From positions 1 through 53,538 of the forward strand of contig SVJN01000001.1 of NCBI GenBank assembly GCA_015068965.1: 53,538 nucleotides of DNA. The letters run 5' to 3'. Shown here piece after piece: positions 4,837 through 51,875 of this stretch. The notes under the pieces are model-generated. The model did not search any database, was not told where the DNA came from, and was given only the letters and a program-made list of their open reading frames with translations. A program made the translations under genes and the position numbers. This DNA is from Oscillospiraceae bacterium (GTDB lineage: Bacteria; Bacillota; Clostridia; UBA1381). How positions within the stretch are numbered: position 1 is the first letter of the stretch; every line of letters begins with the position of its first letter.

Positions 4837-4957
4837 AAAAGCTTCTGATCGAAGCCCCGCCTGCGGGCGTGGGATTTAGGTAGCAATTTTGTTATTCCGG
4901 AAATTACAACATAAATGTTGTAATTTCCTATATAATAAAAAAAATTTGGCTTTTGTC

Positions 4958-16193: not shown

Positions 16194-16234
16194 AAAAAGA
16201 GTGGCCCAAGCGGATGCTTGAGCCACTCTTTTTG
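16194..16234 (+). terminator. Rho-independent terminator of lepA
   Basis: AAAAAGAGTGGC-C-CAAGC-GGAT-GCTTG-A-GCCACTC followed by TTTTT. Confidence 0.85.
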
Positions 16235-16367
16235 TGCAATCATCAGACGCAAATATAATTCGTTTTCACACCAACTCGGTTTGTCTGTCTGCACCAAATT
16301 TACCCGGACGTTACCGACAGCCCTTGTATGCCGGATACCGCCCATTCAAACGTCACAATGCTACAGC

Positions 16368-18035
16368 TTATTTCAATCTGTTTTCGTAATCTTCGATCAT
16401 CTTCTTACTCATGTGACCGGTACGACCTCTGATTTTAGAAAGGTACTTTTCACACGTTTTCCCTGTAAATATCTTGATTTCAAGCCTTAAGCAATCACCC
16501 TCGGGCGTAACAAAAATTCTGTCAATATACTTTGTGATAAACTCCTTTGATATCAAGCCCTGTGCGGCATCCTGCTTTGCCTGGGTTAAAACGGTGCGGA
16601 TTTCTTCGATATGCTTTTTGAAATCCTCCTTGGAGTTCTGTTGCTCCAAAAGCCCGGCAAGCTCCTTTTCCAGGGATTCAATTCTTTCCTTGCATTCTCT
16701 GTTCATCTGGAGATATTCCTCGTCTGAGAGGTCTCCGTTTAAATTATAATCAAGAATTTTACGTTTCTTTTTTTGTTCATGCTCCAGTTCTTTCTGCAGG
16801 CGTTCAATTTCACGAGCCAAATCACCGCTTGCCTCGATGGTGCGATACATTTCAATGTAGGATTCAATCAAATCCTCCGCAATGGGAGAGGTTTCGTTGA
16901 ATACATCGAACAGAATCGGTTTGATTTCTTCTTCATAGATGGCAAAGGATGGGCAGGAATCCGCTCCATTGTTGATTTTTCCACTACATACCCATTTGCT
17001 GTTTTTGTTACCTTGCCGATCTACACTATCACGACGGTAATAGGCCTTACCGCAGTGCGTACAGAATAGCTTGCCTGTTAAAAGATTGGCGTGATTACAG
17101 ATGTTCTGTCTTTTTTTCACATCCTTGCTTCTCCGCTCCAAAACGGCGTTTGCCGCATCCCAAAGCTCCTCGCTGACAATAGCGGGTACAATCTCTCCCG
17201 TTTCATCCTTGAACATCACCCATTCTTCGGGCGGGAGAAAATGCTGTTTTTTGGTAAACATATCAATTACTTTTACCTTGTTGCCTACATAGTAGCCCTT
17301 GTATTTGGGATTGGAAATTGTATTTGCCATGGTTGAATGGGCAATTTTGTTGCCGTTTCGGTTTCGGTAGCCCTTGCTCCAGAATAAGTCCTCAATCTGC
17401 TTCATACTGTATTGGTCAGTTGCATAAAGTTCAAAAAGCTCCCGAACCATCTTTGCTTCTTCTTCGTTAATCACTAACCTTTTATCTTTTTTGTCATAAC
17501 CGAAAATTCTGCTGTTACCAAGCACAACATGATTTTTGATTGCCTGCTGATGCCCGAATTTAATACGGGAGGAAAGCTTTCTTAATTCGTCCTGTGCAAT
17601 AGAGGACATAATGGAGAGACGAAGCTCAGAATCCTCGTCAAGGGTATTGATATTGTCATTCTGGAAGAATACTCCTACACCGTTTTGTAACAGTTCTCGT
17701 GTGAACCGGATACTGTCTAATGTGTTTCTTGCAAAACGGGAGATTTCTTTTGTAATCACAAAATCAAATTTATCAGTTTGGCTATCTGCAATCATCTGAT
17801 TAAAATTTTCACGCTTTTGCGTGGAAATCCCGGAAATACCTTCGTCAATGTACCCCGGAATATATTCCCAGTTCGGATTTTTCTTGATAAGGTCGGTATA
17901 GTATGCAATCTGGTTATCCAACGAATTTAACTGTTCGTCCTTTTCGGAGGAAACACGGGCATAGAAGGTAACTCGCATTGATATTTCATAGATTGATTTG
18001 AATTTCATTTGTTGACGTATTTCGTGTATGTTCAT
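16368..18035 (-). CDS. Large serine recombinase (resolvase catalytic domain, recombinase domain, zinc ribbon and coiled coil)
   Basis: 555 aa. YARVSSEKDEQLNSLDNQ (catalytic Ser region), ISRFARN, the Cys cluster CTHCGKAYYRR...WVCSGKINNGADSC, and a long Glu/Lys-rich coiled coil. The start at 18035 has an AAAGGA RBS. An alternative start at 17978 (MRVTFYARVSS) is possible. Confidence 0.9.
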   Translation of the reverse strand: MNIHEIRQQMKFKSIYEISMRVTFYARVSSEKDEQLNSLDNQIAYYTDLIKKNPNWEYIPGYIDEGISGISTQKRENFNQMIADSQTDKFDFVITKEISRFARNTLDSIRFTRELLQNGVGVFFQNDNINTLDEDSELRLSIMSSIAQDELRKLSSRIKFGHQQAIKNHVVLGNSRIFGYDKKDKRLVINEEEAKMVRELFELYATDQYSMKQIEDLFWSKGYRNRNGNKIAHSTMANTISNPKYKGYYVGNKVKVIDMFTKKQHFLPPEEWVMFKDETGEIVPAIVSEELWDAANAVLERRSKDVKKRQNICNHANLLTGKLFCTHCGKAYYRRDSVDRQGNKNSKWVCSGKINNGADSCPSFAIYEEEIKPILFDVFNETSPIAEDLIESYIEMYRTIEASGDLAREIERLQKELEHEQKKKRKILDYNLNGDLSDEEYLQMNRECKERIESLEKELAGLLEQQNSKEDFKKHIEEIRTVLTQAKQDAAQGLISKEFITKYIDRIFVTPEGDCLRLEIKIFTGKTCEKYLSKIRGRTGHMSKKMIEDYENRLK

Positions 18036-18160: not shown

Positions 18161-18345
18161 TTTTTTGCTTTATAGGAAACTGCGTTCCTATAAAGCAAAA
18201 AGAATTGAATGCCCGTGCGAAATTTTCCGCTAATAGCGGAAACGCACATGGGCGTAACAAAGCATTATGCTTCTTCTTACCGCTCTGCATTAGTTCAAAG
18301 TACACGATAATTTTATGGAGCGGTTGCGGCGAAGCCGCTTTGTTC
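18161..18345 (+). repeat. Structured intergenic repeat of about 185 nt, copy A
   Basis: It opens with a perfect 40-bp dyad, TTTTTGCTTTATAGGAA-ACTGCG-TTCCTATAAAGCAAAAA (18162-18201). Hairpins follow at 18211-18253 (with a nested hairpin at 18224-18242), 18260-18272, 18279-18324 and 18326-18338, then TTTGTTC. By hand alignment there are 12 mismatches in about 185 nt against copy C. Confidence 0.85.
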
Positions 18346-18555
18346 AAGTAAACCATGCTTATAGGTGTAAAAATTCAATCAATTTACTTTATGGATGACA
18401 GTGCAAAGTTTGATGGAACAAAGGGGAAGACGGTTGGTATTGGTTTTATAACCAATTCTGCAATATAGCTTCAGGCTTTGATTGGACTTAATGACACTTT
18501 ATATGATTTTTTGATAAAATAAAAGAAATTGAACATTATTCATAGATTTTGGAAA

Positions 18556-18585
18556 TTGACTTACCTGAAAAGCCGGTGCTATAAT
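18556..18585 (+). promoter_or_regulatory. SigmaA promoter (extended -10) for the first ABC transporter / surface-protein cluster
   Basis: TTGACT (18556-18561), an 18-nt spacer, then TGcTATAAT (18577-18585). It lies about 30 nt upstream of the ATG at 18617, which has an AGGAGG RBS. Confidence 0.6.
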
Positions 18586-18616
18586 TAAAATATAAAAAAG
18601 TAATAGGAGGAGCAAT

Positions 18617-20161
18617 ATGAAAAAAGGATTCAAAAAAGCTATCATTGGTGCAGTTGCACTTTGTGTAACGGTTAGTATCGCCGGCTGCGGCAATGAAGAG
18701 AAAAAAGATTCATCCAACAAGCTTACCTATTGGATGGAGCTTGAATCAAATGCGGCAATGTCGGTAAGTGATTACGGTGAAACACCGTTTGCAAAGGAGC
18801 TTGAGAAGAGGCTGGGAATTGATATTGAATATCAGCATCCACCTCAAGGTCAGGGCGGAGAGAAATTCAATGTAATGGTGGCAATGGATGATTTGCCTGA
18901 CATTATTGAGTACCGCTGGGCAAATTATCCGGGCGGACCCGGACGGGCAATTTCTGAGGGGATTATCCGTGATATCGGAAAAGAACTTGACAAGGCCCCG
19001 AATTTTAAAAAATACCTTGAAGAGCATCCGGAAATCAGTAAGTGGGTAAAAACAGATAACGGTGAAATTTTTGCATTCCCATTTATACGGGGAGATAAAT
19101 CGCTTCAGGTATCGGCAGGAATATGTGTGCGTAAGGACTGGCTGGATGAGTTGGGTCTTGCGGTACCGGAAACAATTGATGAATGGGAAAATGTCCTTGT
19201 GGCATTTAAGGAAAAGAAAGGAGCTGCCGCACCGCTGACAATTCAACCGTATCAGTTTGCGTGGGGCACTTTCTGTGGTGCGTATGGAGTCATGCAGGGT
19301 ACATATATTGATGAAGGCAAGGTTGTATTCGGTTCTGCACAGCCGGGCTTTAAGGATTTCCTTGCAACGATGAATAAGTGGTATAATATGGGAATACTTG
19401 ACAGCAATATTGCGGCGGTTAATTCCAAGACAGTAGATGCTAATATCATAAATGGTGTTTCGGGCGCAACTGCAGGAAGCATAGGAAGTGGTATTGGCAG
19501 ATGGATGCAAGCGGCGACAGAACCGGGCTTTGAATTGGTTGCGGCACCCTATCCGACACTTAACAAGGGTGATTATCCGGAGTATGGTCAGGCACAGTCG
19601 GCAGTTCCATGGGGATTTGCGGCAATCACTACAAGTTGCGAGAATGTTGATTTGGCTTACAAGCTTCTCGATTACGGATATTCTGAGGAAGGACATATGT
19701 TATTTAACTTCGGAATTGAAGGTGAGAGCTATACTATGGTAGACGGTGAACCGATTTATACCGAGAAGATAACAAACAATCCTGATGGACTTTCTATGTC
19801 AGCAGCAATGGCTATGTATATGCAGTCCTATAACACAGGAGCATTTGTTCAGGATAAACGGTATATGGAGCAGTATGCATCGCTTCCGCAACAGAAACAG
19901 GCATGGGAAATCTGGAGCAATACAAATGCACATGAACACGTAATGCCGTATCTGTACATGGATGAGGAAGAAGCAGGTGAAATTGCAAAACTTACGAACT
20001 CTATTTCCACATACGAGTCGGAAATGATTATAAAATTTATTATGGGAATTGAGCCGATTGAAAATTATGATAAATATCTTGCAGAGCTTGAAACTCGTGG
20101 CTTGTCAAAAGTACTTGCAGCTCAGCAAAAAGCTTATGAAAGATATCTGGTAAGAGAATAA
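18617..20161 (+). CDS. Sugar ABC transporter substrate-binding lipoprotein (LplA-like, large family-1 SBP)
   Basis: 514 aa. Signal peptide with lipobox SIAGC and the typical extracellular solute-binding architecture. Confidence 0.9.
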   Translation: MKKGFKKAIIGAVALCVTVSIAGCGNEEKKDSSNKLTYWMELESNAAMSVSDYGETPFAKELEKRLGIDIEYQHPPQGQGGEKFNVMVAMDDLPDIIEYRWANYPGGPGRAISEGIIRDIGKELDKAPNFKKYLEEHPEISKWVKTDNGEIFAFPFIRGDKSLQVSAGICVRKDWLDELGLAVPETIDEWENVLVAFKEKKGAAAPLTIQPYQFAWGTFCGAYGVMQGTYIDEGKVVFGSAQPGFKDFLATMNKWYNMGILDSNIAAVNSKTVDANIINGVSGATAGSIGSGIGRWMQAATEPGFELVAAPYPTLNKGDYPEYGQAQSAVPWGFAAITTSCENVDLAYKLLDYGYSEEGHMLFNFGIEGESYTMVDGEPIYTEKITNNPDGLSMSAAMAMYMQSYNTGAFVQDKRYMEQYASLPQQKQAWEIWSNTNAHEHVMPYLYMDEEEAGEIAKLTNSISTYESEMIIKFIMGIEPIENYDKYLAELETRGLSKVLAAQQKAYERYLVRE

Positions 20162-30600: not shown

Positions 30601-32053
30601 GTATCTTTATGCTGATATATTAAGTGACTCTCTGGAGGACGTGATGACGGGGGCTCATAGTCGTGTGTATGCAGGTATGTCTTATACTACAAAGTTTAAG
30701 ATGCTTGAGATTATGTTTGATTTAAGTACGGTCGCTTTTGATGAACTGGGACCGGAAAAAGCGGTACAGGATTCGCATATTTTGTTCGGAGAATATATTC
30801 CGGATGCGGTGATTTACGATATGGCATTTGAAGAGAACAGAAGGTTTGAAAATAAAGAACGTCGTTCCATTTATGCAATTCCTGATGATTTGCTGATTAC
30901 CGACACCATGGAAAAGTATACCTATACAACACCCACCTACAGTCTTGGATGTGTGGTACATGTGGATGATCTTACAAAGTACTGGTCACCCGCCGGAAAT
31001 TATCAGCCTGTCACATCGACCTATCCGAAGAGCTTGAGAAGAAATATTATTCAGGCGCAGCAGGAGATTCCGTGGTCATTGCACCTTGCAGGTGGCAGTG
31101 ATACCATGATATATGAAGGACATCCCGGACCCTATGGTACGGCAGCGGCAAGTCATGCACACGGTTATTTTGCGGGGGATTTGCATTGTAACTGTTATCA
31201 GTATTTCCAACATGAAAATGTAAGCATTGGTATGCATAAAATCACCCGTTCCGGTGAAGTAAAGTTCACGCATTTCTGGTTGCCAAGAGATAATTTTGAG
31301 GAGATTTACGAAGAGAGTGGATGGATATTTGTAAATCACAAGGGGACATATGTGGCAATCAAGCCATTGAAGGACGGAAAAAGCGATGGAATCTTATATT
31401 CATGGGGAATAGTCGGACAGAAATATAACAATGCTTATCCGCTTGATCGGGTGGAAGTCCGGACAGATTCAAAGGATACTGCATTTGTGTGCGAGGTACA
31501 TGAAGCAGAAGTATATGGCAAAGGCTTTGATGAGTTCTGCCAAGATATTATAAAAAATACAAGTATCAGCTATCGTGTATCATCGGATTATTATGTTGAG
31601 TATACTGCACTCAGCGGAAAAACGTTAAAGATTGATTATAATAAAAATCAAAGATTTTTAAATGGCGAACTGCATGATACCCATGAATACAAAATGCATG
31701 ACAGCAAGTATGTTACTGCAGAGTGGGATGCCGGTGAGATTCTGATTACGTCCGCAGATAACAGTTATAAAATATCAGCATATCTGACACCGATAGATTC
31801 AGAAATGGCAATCAAATTGCTTACCACCATAAAAAGCTTTGAAGAGGAGCTTGCAGGTTGTTCCAAATCAAGACTTAGAGCATTGCTTGATTCCAGAGAA
31901 CAGGAAATCATAGATGCGGTGCAATTTCTGGATTTGTACAGTGAGAGTGCGATTAAGGATATGTGTTGTGAACGTTTTCTTGCACTCGCAGAGAAACTGT
32001 CGAAAATCGGGCAGGATAAGTTGGCACAAAGGATTAAGATGGCAATTCAATAA
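27635..32053 (+). CDS. Secreted large multidomain putative polysaccharide lyase (paralog of 23965-27633)
   Basis: 1472 aa. Signal peptide MKRILSTILCTVMLAAGIVPVVGNA. Two LamG-like domains (the second runs from VLSEDFETGE to YIDDVVVTLE), Ig-like repeats, a heparinase-II/III-like module (SAHYYNVDIYTFENLY, SHAHGYFAGDLHCNCYQYFQHENVSIGMHKI) and an extra helical tail of about 100 aa. The ATG lies 1 nt after the upstream TGA. Confidence 0.6.
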   Translation: MKRILSTILCTVMLAAGIVPVVGNAEEKKMMLKSGETIHVDEQYRELLTGTNYFDTKEIDGEALIQVAGESRIIGSSAVGEGFSDFIIEADIQQTGCTGVSSGVFSIGLRSGGSSATQYRLVYVSSLNYNSSTKKHGNGEIVRDRLAIVRTSGSDNCSTWYYAAVSEKPLGILKNSATPWIHLRGIMTDDGIAFSAYDEKGILLSSISASMHELNMNIVGMPIVEEGGIMLSSHSSNVYVKNMMVTPIDAYQEIKIEPAYSKMYQGQNAPVKVVDENGNELFSGAYTSEMIKNNTVTFQDAGTKKIQVTAKDAITEEEYTASCEIEVVDKIEFTALEAELSNSGIVRGGTVGYQVWGVSADGIRYNVDAVVSGEGITIEGNSITSDIPGEKTVTFRYDKLETSEKLNVSKFYDIKLLPCREQVLMWDKLHFYAEADTGNGIVTIEPEKLLFDKKVFAEENKRLKANRTGTHTVGGVVDSVMLTTEVVVIPKEEGVVLSEDFETGEAISEYMQYDSGKLIVDGENTAYVIDNETTGFFGDYEWRDYRIDFKLKIANPVIEQEQYAGLFEIIPRRRIPAENVFGGDKGIPFVYRASHNIDAPHMRISVDPGPEINIEDGGWHNVSVEVNGCQMIFGIDDKKMYYSGSFPKQGYFSLRASNLTAYIDDVVVTLEKEVNPSENAVIERVEAEADGAKIPVHDAFSLLAMTPVKAYYSDGTSRYLDIVNEVKWSIQSGADKVNLSRNRGIKATKAGEVHLIGEVGGKTFPFQITVYDDGMSDREYAEKTLKKRRETYLYSMQKSYNEGTVKGVGGLGNLASYYGEMLMYPRDRDYSELLEWHGIQAEYEDTIVGRGNDGGDFIILQMINIYNKLKGRIHASEESFEDMKEYLCSVRYPAPEDWMSENHKGVFYATAILVGETFPDAIMMEGMTGRELNQRYTGYMKTWVNQRLKRGFMEYDSAHYYNVDIYTFENLYAVTKNPELKKMAYDMLTYLYADILSDSLEDVMTGAHSRVYAGMSYTTKFKMLEIMFDLSTVAFDELGPEKAVQDSHILFGEYIPDAVIYDMAFEENRRFENKERRSIYAIPDDLLITDTMEKYTYTTPTYSLGCVVHVDDLTKYWSPAGNYQPVTSTYPKSLRRNIIQAQQEIPWSLHLAGGSDTMIYEGHPGPYGTAAASHAHGYFAGDLHCNCYQYFQHENVSIGMHKITRSGEVKFTHFWLPRDNFEEIYEESGWIFVNHKGTYVAIKPLKDGKSDGILYSWGIVGQKYNNAYPLDRVEVRTDSKDTAFVCEVHEAEVYGKGFDEFCQDIIKNTSISYRVSSDYYVEYTALSGKTLKIDYNKNQRFLNGELHDTHEYKMHDSKYVTAEWDAGEILITSADNSYKISAYLTPIDSEMAIKLLTTIKSFEEELAGCSKSRLRALLDSREQEIIDAVQFLDLYSESAIKDMCCERFLALAEKLSKIGQDKLAQRIKMAIQ

Positions 32054-46312: not shown

Positions 46313-46357
46313 ACGAGGAGTGGGTGAAGAAGTACACCCGCTCCTCGTTCTGTTTTT
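46313..46357 (+). terminator. Rho-independent terminator closing the first carbohydrate cluster
   Basis: ACGAGGAGTGGGTG-AAGAAGTA-CACCCGCTCCTCGT is a 14-bp stem with one G-T pair, followed by TCTGTTTTT. The T-run runs into the repeat B dyad. Confidence 0.7.
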
Positions 46358-46500
46358 ACTTTATAGGAAACTTCGTTCCTATAAAGTAAAAAGAATTGAA
46401 TGCCCGTGCGAAATTTTCCGCTAATAGCTGAAACGCACATGGACAGCCCGAAAGCGTTATGCTACACCGTCGCGAAGAGTACGGCGTAGCCGCTTTCTGT
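46353..46500 (+). repeat. Structured intergenic repeat, copy B (5' ~95 nt conserved, 3' part shortened and diverged)
   Basis: The dyad is TTTTTACTTTATAGGAA-ACTTCG-TTCCTATAAAGTAAAAA (46353-46392). It is then near-identical to copies A and C up to about 46445. The 3' part keeps a short AAGCG-TTA-TGCT hairpin and a CCGT/ACGG stem in place of the longer stem seen in A and C. Confidence 0.8.
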
Positions 46501-49042: not shown

Positions 49043-49897
49043 ATGGCAGTCATTCAAAATGTAGAACTAAAAAACCCGAAAGGGAAATTATTTCTGACGT
49101 TGATTTATATTATTTTATTGATTGGGGCGGTTGTTCAGTTTCTTCCATTGGTCTGGTTGTTTGTCGGAACATTTAAAACCAATAACGAATTGGTGAGTGC
49201 AATACCGAAATTTTTACCGGAAAAGTGGAGTCTGGATGCTTACATAGAAGCATTTGCGAAGTACGATATCTGGGAAAATATCTACAACACGGTGTTTATG
49301 TGCGTCTCTATTATTGTTGTTCAGACCGTAACGAGTACGTTGGCGGCATTCTCTTTTTCAAAGCTGAAGCCACGGTGCGGTGGATTTGTCTATATGCTGA
49401 TGCTGGGAACACAGATGTTCAGTACAACGGCATTGCTGTTCCCGACCTATATTATGATGACGAAAATGGGCTTAATCGGAAGTAAAGCTTCCTGGATTCT
49501 TACATCAAGTGCCTGGGCATATGCGATTGTACTGTACAAAAACTTTTTTGATAATATTCCCAAGGATTTGATGGAGGCTGCACAAATTGACGGTGCAGGA
49601 ACCTTCCGGCAGATTTTGCACATTATTATTCCTTTGTCAAAGCCGATTTATGCAGTATGTATCTTGAACACATTTATGGCGGTATACAACGACTTTTTGT
49701 TCCCGCTGATGCTTCTTCCGAATGAGAAGGATTGGACGCTGATGATTCGGATTTTCGCCTTGGATAATGCAGGCGGCGTAAAGCAGAACGTTATGTATGT
49801 GTTGCTGTTTGTGACTTGTATTCCGTCAATCGTTTTCTATCTGATGGCACAGCGCAACATTCAGGAAGGTGTGTCAACATCGGGAATTAAGGGTTAA
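49043..49897 (+). CDS. Sugar ABC transporter permease (MalG/UgpE-like)
   Basis: 284 aa. EAA loop EAAQIDGAGTFRQILHIIIP. Confidence 0.92.
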   Translation: MAVIQNVELKNPKGKLFLTLIYIILLIGAVVQFLPLVWLFVGTFKTNNELVSAIPKFLPEKWSLDAYIEAFAKYDIWENIYNTVFMCVSIIVVQTVTSTLAAFSFSKLKPRCGGFVYMLMLGTQMFSTTALLFPTYIMMTKMGLIGSKASWILTSSAWAYAIVLYKNFFDNIPKDLMEAAQIDGAGTFRQILHIIIPLSKPIYAVCILNTFMAVYNDFLFPLMLLPNEKDWTLMIRIFALDNAGGVKQNVMYVLLFVTCIPSIVFYLMAQRNIQEGVSTSGIKG

Positions 49898-49908
49898 AAG
49901 AATATAAT

Positions 49909-49936
49909 AAAAAAAGTGCATATCGCACTTTTTTTA
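49909..49936. terminator. Short bidirectional-looking terminator hairpin
   Basis: AAAAAGTGC-ATATC-GCACTTTTTTT. An A-run and a T-run flank it on both sides, and the T-run is shared with the repeat C dyad. Confidence 0.55.
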
Positions 49937-50114
49937 CTTTATAGGAAACTTCGTTCCTATAAAGTAAAAAGAATTGAATGCCCGTGCGAGATTTTCCGCC
50001 AATAGCGGAAACGCACATGGGCGTAACAAAGCGACTCGCTTCTTCTTACCGCTCTGCATCAGTTCAAAGTACAGGATAATTTTATGGAGCGGTTGCGGCG
50101 AAGCCGCTTTGTTC
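49931..50114 (+). repeat. Structured intergenic repeat of about 185 nt, copy C
   Basis: The dyad is TTTTTACTTTATAGGAA-ACTTCG-TTCCTATAAAGTAAAAA (49931-49970). The stem series matches copy A: 50029-50041 (AAGCG-ACT-CGCTT), 50048-50093 and 50095-50107. Confidence 0.85.
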
Positions 50115-50147
50115 TTATGGAAAATTATTTTGTTGTGACGAATTGCC

Positions 50148-51875
50148 TTATTGTTGTTTTTTGATTCGGATTGTAACGGTGGTTCCTTGCATGGGAACGC
50201 TGGAGTAAGAAAGTCCATAGCCCTTTCCATATTCCAGCTCCAGACGGTTCTGAACATTTTTTACACCGTAACCTACTTTGAAATCGCTTTGTGTTGTAGT
50301 GGTGAGCGGATCGAATGCCATTCCGCTTCCGTTATCAGTAATCCGGAACACGATGTCATCCTCCTCCGGATAACCGCTGATTTCGATAATGCCCTTATGC
50401 GGAATCTGATTAAATGCGTGCTTGATGCAGTTTTCAACAATTGGCTGAATAATGATTTTCAAGGTCATAAAGTCCTCGATGCTCTCATCAATATCGAAAA
50501 AGACATCAAAGGCATTCGGAAAACGTATCTGTTCTACGGTGATGTAGCTTTTTACATGTCGGATTTCGTCTTTAATCATGATTTTATTGTCTCCGTTATG
50601 CAGTCCTAAACGGAAATAGGAGGCGAGGGCGGAGCAGATACGTTCAATTTGCTCCTGATGATTGATTTTTGCAATCCAGCTCATGGAATCCAATGCGTTA
50701 TATACAAAATGCGGGTTGATTTGTGCTTGTAGTGCTGCAAGCTCTGCAACCTTTTGTTTCTTTTTTTCCATATCGTTTTTCTGCATCAGGTCATCAATCT
50801 GATTTTCAAAATCAAGAAATCGTTTTTCTAATGAGAATAGTTCATTGTTTCCGGTTGGTTCAAGAACAATTTTTTCCGGATAGAGACTGATTTTTTTGTT
50901 CAAGGCCGAGATGGAATTTGTCAGATTTTTGGAAAGAAGATATGCTATAAGAAATGCAATAACAAGATTCAGTCCAAAAATGTATACGATAATGGTGTTA
51001 AAATTTTTTAGTGTTTCATAGTAATTATGACTGTCTACAATACTGATCATATCAAAATTACTTCCGGAGAAGGAGGTTGTGGAGTATTTACTGACAAACT
51101 TCCCGGAATTCAGTTCGTTGAGTGTGGCATCCTCGGAGAAGATATAACCGGGAATATACAATTCTTTTCCGAGTTGATTTTTATCCTTGTGTGAAATAAT
51201 ATTTCCGTTACAAGAAAGAAAGGTTTCCGAGTTTTGCAGGGTTGAGTTTTCAAACATGGAAAAAATAGTGTTTTCGTTAATGTAACACTCGATATAGCCG
51301 AGCTCCAGACCGGAATAATAGTTGGAAAGAATTTTTCCGAAAACGATGTAGCTTTGCCCGTTCACGGTAACTGGAGTGTCGTGAAGGAAAATGTTGTAGC
51401 CGTTTGTACCCTTAATAAAGTCGGGCGGGAGTGCCGAAAAGGAGGAGCCGTCGTGGGAAAAACAAAAGGCTTCGCCGGTGTGGGAAATAATGGCTGCTTT
51501 TTCAATAAAATCCATATCCAGCACATTGGATGTAATCAGTTGCCCGATACGTTCCATTTGTTCTGCTTTTGTTTTGGTTTTATCGTTCAGCGAAAGAACC
51601 AGACTTGAATCAAGACTCAAGGGTAGTGTGTACATATGGAGCTGACTGCTCAAATCGGTGATGCTTGTATCAAATTCATTATGAATGTAAGTCATATACT
51701 TTTCCAGATGCTGCGTCAACAGTCCGCTTGCTACATTCTTTGCAAGAAAGAATAATAGCAATGATATGATAAAGCTGGTCAGACCAATCAGCACAGAAAT
51801 TCCTGTACTCAAGCGATATTTCGCATAAATTCTGTTCCATAAGCTTTTCATGGATTTCCTCCTTTCGGAAATCAT
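50148..51875 (-). CDS. YesM-type sensor histidine kinase (2 TM segments, extracytoplasmic sensor, HAMP, His_kinase/HATPase)
   Basis: 575 aa. LQAQINPHFVYNALDS (LytS/YesM-type H box) and a C-terminal HATPase (DNGSGM, GYGVKNV). The start overlaps the upstream stop in an ATGA arrangement. Confidence 0.9.
   Translation of the reverse strand: MISERRKSMKSLWNRIYAKYRLSTGISVLIGLTSFIISLLLFFLAKNVASGLLTQHLEKYMTYIHNEFDTSITDLSSQLHMYTLPLSLDSSLVLSLNDKTKTKAEQMERIGQLITSNVLDMDFIEKAAIISHTGEAFCFSHDGSSFSALPPDFIKGTNGYNIFLHDTPVTVNGQSYIVFGKILSNYYSGLELGYIECYINENTIFSMFENSTLQNSETFLSCNGNIISHKDKNQLGKELYIPGYIFSEDATLNELNSGKFVSKYSTTSFSGSNFDMISIVDSHNYYETLKNFNTIIVYIFGLNLVIAFLIAYLLSKNLTNSISALNKKISLYPEKIVLEPTGNNELFSLEKRFLDFENQIDDLMQKNDMEKKKQKVAELAALQAQINPHFVYNALDSMSWIAKINHQEQIERICSALASYFRLGLHNGDNKIMIKDEIRHVKSYITVEQIRFPNAFDVFFDIDESIEDFMTLKIIIQPIVENCIKHAFNQIPHKGIIEISGYPEEDDIVFRITDNGSGMAFDPLTTTTQSDFKVGYGVKNVQNRLELEYGKGYGLSYSSVPMQGTTVTIRIKKQQ

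Follow-up and report, generated by a model that had tools for sequence, protein, structure and literature searches.

The stretch of DNA considered here, referred to below as the window, comprises the 53,538 nucleotides at positions 1 to 53,538 of contig SVJN01000001.1 from an Oscillospiraceae bacterium (assembly GCA_015068965.1), and it harbours three intergenic copies, named A, B and C, of a structured sequence of up to 185 nt. With a confidence somewhat above even, we regard these copies as members of a modular family found in gut and rumen Clostridia: small non-coding repeats, interspersed in the genome, which are lodged 3' of the T-run of intrinsic terminators, in the orientation of the terminator, and which are probably moved in trans by a hairpin-recognising enzyme. 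The family is dispersed and multi-copy, has conserved left and right ends and an interchangeable middle, and includes truncated and tandem copies; it has the look of a mobile, selfish repeat and not of a dedicated RNA gene. The family is previously undescribed, a literature search for the dyad and hairpin sequences having found no description of it, and its kind, the small structured interspersed repeat, is already known.

A reading of the window made from its sequence alone had described three direct copies of about 185 nt. A and C are indeed full-length where that sequence-only reading had placed them, and B shares only about 110 nt with them and has a 3' part of its own. The features of the three copies and of their immediate flanks are the following.

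18161..18345, forward strand: copy A, full-length 'type I' element of 185 nt
18162..18201, forward strand: dyad of copy A, with 17-bp arms TTTTTGCTTTATAGGAA / TTCCTATAAAGCAAAAA at 18162-18178 / 18185-18201 (17+6+17) and centre ACTGCG at 18179-18184; its leftmost 5-6 T are part of the T-run
18211..18253, forward strand: nested hairpin of copy A, GCCCGTGCG..TTTCCGC-TAATA-GCGGAAA..CGCAC-AT-GGGC
18256..18345, forward strand: 3' domain of copy A, made up of the five parts that follow
18256-18263, forward strand: A-rich segment AACAAAGC
18260-18272, forward strand: small hairpin
18279-18285 / 18318-18324, forward strand: long-loop stem ACCGCTC/GAGCGGT
18326-18338, forward strand: terminal hairpin GCGGC-GAA-GCCGC
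18339-18345, forward strand: tail TTTGTTC
46313..46352, forward strand: intrinsic terminator of the host GH127 gene, stem ACGAGGAGTGGGTG..TACACCCGCTCCTCGT, free energy (dG) -26.9 kcal/mol, its T-run continuing into copy B
46353..46497 (right end approximate), forward strand: copy B, with an A/C-like dyad and nested hairpin to about 46445
49910..49935, forward strand: host terminator of an ABC-transporter operon, AAAAAAAGTGC-ATATC-GCACTTTTTTT
49930..50114, forward strand: copy C, full-length type I element, found at this position in every strain-level contig
50115..50130, forward strand: degenerate half-dyad TTATGGAAAATTAT, immediately 3' of the tail of copy C

Copies A and C are 94% identical over 185 nt. 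Copy B matches them at 88-94% over its first 98 nt and remains alignable until about 46463 (~110 nt, with weaker similarity from about 46445 to 46463), beyond which it continues into a distinct 3' module ending in GGC-GTA-GCC and GCTTTC at about 46497; its right edge was set by a strain variant (L015) that departs from the window left of 46494. All the stems quoted in the sequence-only reading are present, as is its 17-6-17 dyad, whose 28-bp core CTTTATAGGAA-N6-TTCCTATAAAG is found at three places in the window where 0.00 would be expected, none having appeared in 100 shuffles. Copy C sits between convergent genes, a permease (49043-49897, forward) and a histidine kinase (50148-51875, reverse), and the T-run of the ABC-transporter operon terminator is at the same time the left arm extension of its dyad. 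As this left-edge T-run is common to the element and the host terminator, it lies at least partly outside the sequence of the element. In contigs of the same species from other samples B and C are in place, and several contigs end within copy A, which is the expected behaviour of an assembler at a repeat.

The family as collected amounts to 32 related copies, of 95-185 nt, from rumen metagenome-assembled genomes (MAGs), metagenomes, misfiled human-gut scaffolds and one Clostridium plasmid; loci are cited by handles such as L002. A 20-mer from the nested hairpin, searched against 185,579 species genomes, gave two real copies and two chance matches; L002 is a full copy in a Clostridiales MAG (90% identical to A) and L004 the left 105 nt in an Oscillospiraceae MAG (99% identical to A across these first 105 nt), both from the rumen. 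The dyad pattern led to five metagenome contigs, and BLAST against a 'phages' collection led to human-faecal scaffolds filed as 'Bacteriophage sp.'. A query taken from one human-gut scaffold matched at 51 places in 28 records, and 646 kb of human-gut records contain 21 dyads, which puts one human-gut organism at about one per 30 kb. The records L033-L047 (GenBank MT835472-MT839494, 'UNVERIFIED: Bacteriophage sp.') carry purA, rnc, ileS, ligA, rpmB, ribosomal and flagellar genes, tRNAs and riboswitches, and look like fragments of bacterial chromosomes, not phage genomes. A phage origin of the repeats was also rejected, three IMG/VR scans having given only chance matches in coding DNA. Finally, a Clostridium perfringens plasmid record contains a tandem pair with a third dyad variant: at L065:2895-3096 (plasmid p21-D-5b, NZ_CP119189, 52.6-52.85 kb) a short and a long copy with the dyad variant TTATCGTATAGGAAACTTCGTTTCCATACGATAA lie ~330 nt upstream of a small open reading frame (ORF), which is followed by a MobC/relaxase module, with an IS21 element near by. 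Elsewhere in the window, at 4891-4945, a perfect palindrome with 14-bp arms (GGAAATTACAACAT-AA-ATGTTGTAATTTCC, then CTATATAATAAAAAAAA) stands between mnmG and the next gene; read on the minus strand, it gives a T-run and then TATATAGGAAAT, faintly like the left end of the element, and it may be a distant relative or a chance resemblance.

Across the family the order of parts is terminator T-run, 28-bp dyad CTTTAYAGGAA-N6-TTCCTRTAAAG, A-run, interchangeable inner hairpins, terminal hairpin and the tail CTTTGTTC. The copies begin at a T-run of 5-8 nt, which invariably lies on one side of the element (among the 32, the T-tracts of L043:10585 and L044 are interrupted). There follow (A/G)CTTTAYAGGAA, a 6-nt asymmetric centre A(C/T)T(G/T/C)C(G/T), TTCCTRTAAAG(T/C) and 5-6 A; written out, the module is T-run + ACTTTAYAGGAA-N6-TTCCTRTAAAGT + A-run, and together with the T-run of the host and the A-run of the element the dyad makes a perfect hairpin of 17-19 bp. 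What the sub-families have in common is limited to the dyad and to the terminal hairpin with its tail; behind one and the same dyad, the bodies of the window copies, of L007/L009, of L010, of L008/L011, of the human-gut group and of the plasmid are unrelated. Copies within one sub-family are 90-99% identical, and bodies are not homologous between sub-families. In the window type the A-run is followed by the nested hairpin, the small hairpin and the long-loop stem; L010 has a nested hairpin of the same shape in other letters (GCCGTGCA..TTTTGAAAAGC-ATA-GCTTTTCAAAA..TGCAC-AT-GGC), and the human-gut type exists in short and long forms, without or with a 50-nt GC-rich hairpin. The stem of the terminal hairpin varies by sub-family (GCGGC/GCCGC, GCGCC/GGCGC, GAGTCAC/GTGACTC or GAATGTGC/GCACATTC), and in full copies its loop, GAA or (C)AAG, and the tail are constant. 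The 4-nt loop of the human-gut terminal hairpin is found as CAAG or as its reverse complement CTTG (e.g. L035:7834 versus L037:29327), and once as TTTG; near-identical copies differ by this flip, and the dyad centre is likewise inverted in one of 31 copies (L034:17484). These inversions are flip-flops of palindrome centres, and the loop flip is an event at the level of DNA.

In 26 of the 32 copies the 45 nt ending at the T-run fold into a hairpin of dG <= -12 kcal/mol, a value reached by 4.4% of random 45-mers from the same DNA (mean -16.5 at the T-run vs -5.8 kcal/mol at random). Copy C and L009 also have a terminator at the T-run, with a weaker score or reaching past the 45-nt stretch, and copy A is an exception, with no clear terminator upstream. 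A split terminator at lepA was considered and discarded, the lepA terminator (16195-16235) being intact. Since the upstream hairpins are all different in sequence, they are host terminators and not parts of the repeat. Among the 25 copies with an ORF no more than 400 nt upstream, 22 follow the 3' end of a co-oriented gene; an exception is L011, which lies directly 3' of a SAM riboswitch terminator, between the riboswitch and metK. The downstream gene, assessed for 27 genes, is co-oriented in 19 cases and convergent in eight. The neighbours share no function (GH92, kinases, regulators, purA, rnc, ileS, ammonium transporter, ABC transporters). Full copies of the human-gut type stand 20-60 nt before the ribosome-binding sites of ileS, ammonium transporter, rluB-like and RNase R-like genes, and these next genes must therefore be transcribed across the element. 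Such an apposition to a terminator T-run, completed into a perfect palindrome by the A-run of the element, is unusual.

Several signs of mobility have been found in the distribution of the copies. Those of the human-gut scaffolds are 91-97% identical to one another within unrelated flanks. Truncated copies are common (L011, L035:156, L039:24165, L041:2182 and L035:35063), ranging from arm and spacer only (L035:35063) to about 50, 75, 80 and 85 nt, and those with a dyad or half-dyad all retain the T-run side; two independent ones share a breakpoint directly after GGCGTATAA, in the loop of the large GC-rich hairpin. In the tandems of L034 and of the plasmid the second copy starts immediately past a hairpin and T-run, the hairpin in the plasmid being the first copy's own terminal hairpin. 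Half-dyads stand 3' of the TTTGTTC tail in copy C and, more clearly, in L002 (CTGTATAGGAAATTGCG), L007, L008, L041:26556 and L039:1399; most simply they would be the stumps of second copies, and the one after copy C may be read as the remnant of a second, 3'-truncated copy. At an orthologous locus that runs from an SH3 gene to an rluB-like gene, L035 has a 128-nt element between 'T-run + ACT' and 'CGCGGGCAGCGAGAAAA', and another lineage (93% identical protein, ~97% identical flanks) has 36 nt of another repeat in its place. The strain-level contigs of the window species all carry the recombinase gene that adjoins copy A, and they show no polymorphism except in L015, in which copy B abuts foreign DNA precisely at its right edge.

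Two of these loci deserve a further remark. In L056, a contig of a related lineage whose rluB-like protein is 83% identical, the element is joined to a different left flank: L056:2300-2500 connects the left flank of one human-gut locus, the rpmB terminator (L041:26555-26700), to the right flank of another, the rluB leader (L035:7700-7900). Either copies have recombined and rearranged the DNA, or the assembly is chimaeric across the 128-nt repeat. In L015:1-331, a gene for a 54-aa ribbon-helix-helix-like protein and a terminator (ACCACCGG..TGGTGGT TATGATTT) replace the DNA left of about 46494; another mobile element may have inserted at the terminal hairpin of copy B and ended here, where the contig begins. 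The human-gut scaffolds also carry a second set of mosaic repeats, with units AAAGCGTGTTTCYCGTAGTT and ACGCGRGYAGCGAGAAAA and sometimes CGAG-NNN-CTCG (12 matches in 646 kb; L048:2388-2500, L037:22598, L034:1589, L043:30064, L046:29333 and L040:28000). They are often found 3' of terminators and sometimes fused to the dyad element, and their TTTCYCG can pair with CGAGAAA. The same scaffolds contain TwoAYGGAY RNAs (Rfam RF01731, 84-93 bits) at L034:17057-17222, L036:16837-17000 and 30769-30933, and L037:16832-16997 and 18471-18634, one of them directly 3' of a truncated dyad element.

At the level of structure, the preservation of stems by compensatory change is real, both within and between sub-families. 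The sequence-only reading had pointed to two pairs, and they behave as it described: G18167-C18196 in A becomes A-T in B and C, and A18264-T18268 in A becomes G-C in C and G.T in B. Its wider claim that substitutions keep the pairing holds beyond the window. In a census of 31 copies 97.4% of the dyad cells are paired, a percentage that is inflated, as the covariation is not, by the use of search patterns requiring both arms. Double changes occur at four pairs, 19 copies have C-G and 10 have U-A at one position, where no mixture is seen, and covariation as strong was reached by none of 500 shuffles. In the rumen sub-families the tail pairs with an upstream A-rich segment, and this pairing covaries (AACAAAGC/GCTTTGTT in the window type, AACAAAAGC/GCTTTTGTT in L007/L009 and AAGAAAAGC/GCTTTTCTT in L010). 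In copy A RNAalifold chooses this pairing, between 18256-18263 and the tail at 18338-18345, at the expense of some small hairpins formed locally. The folding energy of copy A is -73.7 kcal/mol, with z = -6.3 on the forward strand and z = -6.8 on the reverse strand against shuffles; the two strands fold alike and folding energy consequently gives no strand preference.

A coding function was rejected, in agreement with the earlier view of the predicted peptides as by-products: in the 33-codon frame that starts with ATGCCC, all the differences between A and C are non-synonymous, and L010 has no ATG at that frame start. The absence of a recognisable non-coding RNA or riboswitch class was likewise borne out. 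At gathering thresholds Rfam 15 gave no hit in the whole window and none overlapping any copy in 12 related loci, and a permissive (E-value) scan of copy A returned only miRNA-type hairpin models and Clostridiales-1, at 13.8 bits for a threshold of 48; a known RNA family was rejected on these grounds.

How such elements might spread can be outlined as follows. An enzyme supplied in trans and encoded elsewhere would recognise DNA hairpins and would make and place the copies; candidates are a single-strand transposase of the HUH type (IS200/IS605 or IS91) or an IS110-type recombinase. Its target would be the terminator hairpin with its T-run, and the terminal hairpin of the element with its T-rich tail would recreate that target, which would explain the tandems and the half-dyad stumps. 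The stems would be kept because the enzyme or a single-stranded intermediate needs them, and insertion would be tolerated because of the terminator-like end hairpin and the transcriptionally quiet spot. Any effect at the RNA level, such as the blocking or processing of read-through transcripts, would be a by-product. The anatomy lacks terminal inverted repeats and any visible duplication; it has a conserved hairpin at one end and, at the other, a subterminal hairpin with a short conserved tail, together with a heterogeneous interior and a single orientation relative to a short target. By analogy it suggests the single-strand elements moved by HUH enzymes (IS200/IS605, IS91/Helitron-like) and, less closely, palindrome-targeting IS110.

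Several results weigh against this proposal. An autonomous element or transposase with these ends was not found in the window, the related loci or the 646 kb of human-gut DNA, and self-BLAST of the latter gave no repeat >500 bp and none resembling an insertion sequence. Pfam/NCBIfam scans of the neighbours gave no consistent protein family and no transposase, apart from a weak PDDEXK_2 match upstream of L007. TnpA, TnpB or a parent insertion sequence did not appear in the window or loci scanned, nor did a RAYT-like protein among the window and neighbour proteins scanned. A clean empty site with a simple insertion footprint was not obtained among the loci compared, and the sole polymorphic locus shows replacement by another repeat, not presence versus absence. 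For copy C, orthologous permeases (84% and 74% identical) occur without the element, but next to a different downstream gene, and this candidate empty site was set aside as not clean. The left and right hairpins are dissimilar, and the left one abuts the target without a spacer, unlike IS200/IS605 ends. Neither end repeats the other in inverted form and no duplication of the target site is apparent, so that the element does not look like a classical MITE (miniature inverted-repeat transposable element). Lastly, single-sided changes in stems give G.U more often than A.C on the forward strand, about 13 versus 5 in 13 copies of the human-gut type, and 8 versus 1 in the dyad when the T and A runs are left aside. 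This excess hints at a selected structure of the top strand, as RNA or as single-stranded DNA; it could alternatively be a mutation bias, as a leading-strand C-to-T bias would look alike. The sequence-only reading had held that a match to a known insertion-sequence or MITE family would refute its claim of a novel structured repeat: no described family was matched, but the behaviour is that of an interspersed and probably mobile repeat.

Of the other explanations, the one that survives best, unlikely as we hold it to be, is that of a terminator or insulator co-opted by the host, a role that is compatible with movement in trans. The element would back up the upstream terminator, tie read-through RNA into a duplex (a possible substrate of RNase III) and stop transcription at its terminal hairpin, which in copy A, together with TTTGTTC, was flagged as terminator-like on the forward strand by a terminator scan. 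The copies do lie at gene 3' ends, the 17-19-bp duplex takes in the U-run, the 3' end carries a terminator-like hairpin, and the same role has been suggested for pneumococcal SPRITE (PMC3049150). However, where full copies stand 20-60 nt before ribosome-binding sites there is no room for a promoter and a strong extra terminator would be harmful, truncated copies lack the terminal hairpin, and a benefit to the host is not indicated by any result.

Quite unlikely, too, is a structured RNA, either a family of small RNA genes or a cis-acting element, made from the forward strand and ended by its own terminator, with the copies as paralogous genes. The very stable predicted fold, compensatory changes in several helices, the terminator-like 3' end on the forward strand, the excess of G.U over A.C there, the possible alternative pairings of the terminal hairpin and the presence of multi-copy structured RNAs (TwoAYGGAY) in the same human-gut scaffolds are all in line with it. 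Nevertheless, a conserved promoter is missing: a promoter scan and reading of the sequences revealed no sigma-70-type promoter in or before the element, and a promoter in the dyad was rejected, its -35 match being poor at any spacing (at best 3/6 with an 18-nt spacer). The element begins at the T-run of an upstream terminator, its inner domains are non-homologous between sub-families, truncated copies are many, and both strands fold equally. The CAAG/CTTG flips occur in DNA, and a selected RNA loop motif would resist them. Nor does the element behave as a riboswitch or leader, the function and orientation of the downstream gene being unlinked to it: eight of 27 downstream genes are convergent, the neighbours are functionally unrelated, and the best promoter for the operon after copy A (18556-18585) lies 3' of the element. 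The discrete ~185-nt RNA gene or riboswitch-like class implied by the sequence-only reading is hence not upheld, given the modularity, the truncated and tandem copies, the lack of a promoter and the indifference to the downstream gene.

A terminator-primed synthesis, in which the 3' end of nascent or nicked DNA at the T-run anneals to the A-run of a donor (bottom strand or minus-sense RNA), is extended and returns by way of the T-rich tail, in a copy-choice or SINE-like manner, appears improbable. It would account for a junction that is always at the 3' end of a complete run of 5-8 T, for the matching A-run, for the second T-rich tail at the end of the element, and for truncated copies that keep the T-run/dyad end, two of them broken alike; later deletions could yield the same truncations, though, the breakpoints are not T-rich, L039:1399 retains only the terminal hairpin and a half-dyad, and no reverse transcriptase is linked to the copies. 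To our knowledge such a process is without precedent in bacteria, which also counts against it. A related and similarly doubtful idea is that the terminator serves as primer or guide: the A-run would pair with the T-run, or with the U-run of the terminated RNA, and the host 3' end would be extended or ligated at the foot of the dyad, for which no dedicated transposase ends would be needed; the element would then be a bacterial SINE-like or copy-choice one that finds intrinsic terminators through base pairing.

The gene next to copy A requires separate attention. It encodes a large serine recombinase (16368-18035, reverse strand; 555 aa; Resolvase + Recombinase + Zn_ribbon_recom) and is 125 nt away. 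The recombinase family is 75-90% identical and almost always 555 aa long, with homologues in related genomes beside rplQ, an ABC transporter, radA and lepA. Nucleotide homology is limited to the gene and ~70 nt upstream (to about 18111), including its promoter. A family of integrative elements whose cargo varies probably has the recombinase as its end gene; in the window this cargo may include the glycan-utilisation genes to the right of the recombinase. At the four loci examined there is no dyad or half-dyad within 4 kb of 78-90% identical recombinases, and a link between copy A and its neighbour was rejected: since the homologues occur at dyad-free loci, the adjacency is coincidental. The proposal that the dyad is an att- or dif-like recombination site (11-6-11) of a site-specific recombinase such as this one, with A, B and C used for integration, excision or inversion, is accordingly highly improbable, for although its 11+6+11 arrangement with an asymmetric spacer resembles tyrosine recombinase core sites, copy A adjoins the recombinase, half-dyads ending at the spacer lie right of several copies and foreign DNA in L015 meets copy B exactly at its edge, the homologue loci lack the dyad and their homology stops ~70 nt upstream of the gene, the other 31 copies have no recombinase near by, and integration should leave a host-derived arm in the left site where a perfect dyad is found everywhere. 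The arms share TTCCTATAA with what we take to be the dif site of Firmicutes, but facing the spacer the wrong way round, and a protelomerase site was rejected, the 6-nt centre not being palindromic.

If movement in trans by a hairpin-recognising enzyme is the right explanation, undescribed small repeats in gut and rumen Clostridia use intrinsic terminators as landing sites and rebuild a terminator-like end, and they point to an enzyme of this type. These repeats break metagenome assemblies, as the contig ends within copy A illustrate, mark rearrangement junctions and create spurious ORFs; they may also change how much transcription reads through into essential genes, ileS, purA, rnc and metK among them. 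For their annotation, the conserved dyad offers an easy marker.

Among known systems, the nearest are SPRITE, the modular BOX elements and the mosaic BIMEs. SPRITE is an ~18-bp duplex repeat whose copies concentrate towards the 3' ends of coding sequences and may have been co-opted as terminators (PMC3049150). Judged by description and not by sequence, both are AT-rich, non-coding interspersed repeats of Firmicutes below 200 bp, with a duplex of ~18 bp, enrichment near gene 3' ends, terminator-like features and no known transposase; in SPRITE, however, a long U-rich tract follows the duplex, whereas here the T-run of a separate host terminator precedes it and an A-run follows, and the present element has extra hairpin modules and a terminal hairpin, and different hosts. 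Like BOX, BIMEs and REPs, the family has modules in variable number and a tight secondary structure, is intergenic, often behind genes, and is co-transcribed with them, and, as in BOX and BIMEs, the human-gut element is mixed with other repeat motifs ('M', 'X' and 'Y' units). BOX differs in having target duplications and inverted repeats at its ends. A REP is an imperfect palindrome, 20-40 nt long and with a conserved tetranucleotide on its 5' side, and is associated with a RAYT gene that REPs flank. Neither BOX nor REPs are tied to a terminator T-run.

With MITEs the family shares small size, lack of coding capacity, structure and a dispersed, multi-copy state, but not the inverted ends: no inverted repeat results when the left end, ACTTTAYAGGAA..., is compared with the right end in reverse complement (GAACAAAG + hairpin), flanking direct repeats are absent beyond a T-rich tail that resembles the T-run, and the one orthologous locus compared shows a replacement and not a simple insertion. 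Class C group II introns insert just 3' of intrinsic terminator stem-loops in sense orientation, and place and orientation are the same here. They differ from the present elements, which are 95-185 nt long, have no ribozyme domains and no reverse-transcriptase gene or ORF, retain the 5' and not the 3' end when truncated, and gave no match to group II intron models in Rfam scans of the window and of copy A.

There is also a likeness to IS200/IS605 and to their non-autonomous derivatives, the PATEs. Insertion sequences, those of IS200/IS605 most of all, have an excess of terminator-like sequences immediately upstream (PMC13548323). As in IS200/IS605, the present elements are orientation-specific, with a short target on the left and terminator-like hairpins at the left end or just upstream of it (PMC13548323); they have a hairpin at each end or close to it, and neither terminal inverted repeats nor visible target duplication. 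A fixed short 5' target, as in PATEs, is found in the T-run of nearly all 32 copies, in one orientation. The hairpins themselves depart from the model, being unrelated to each other: the left dyad is AT-rich, 11-17 bp, conserved in sequence and touches the T-run without the spacer of ~16-19 nt, and the right hairpin, which stands 7 nt short of the end of the element, is rich in GC and of variable sequence. The Rfam scans, in which any curated RNA family associated with IS605 would be included, matched no copy. As the end architecture of IS200/IS605 is not found, the claim is that the elements work like that family, not that they belong to it.

A further parallel is ssr9 of ISPpu9, an IS110-family element of Pseudomonas putida, a small non-coding module that is spread selfishly in trans by an IS110-family transposase and inserted into palindromic repeats (PMC12288879). 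Both are small modules with fixed-orientation insertion, ssr9 being found near and far from the transposase gene and in palindromic extragenic repeats (PMC12288879); here the target is an intrinsic terminator and not a REP, no IS110-type gene was seen, and the conserved ends are much longer than the short end boxes of ISPpu9 (PMC12288879). If the proposed mode of spread is correct, the family would be a third kind of terminator-seeking element, after class C group II introns and terminator-associated IS200/IS605.

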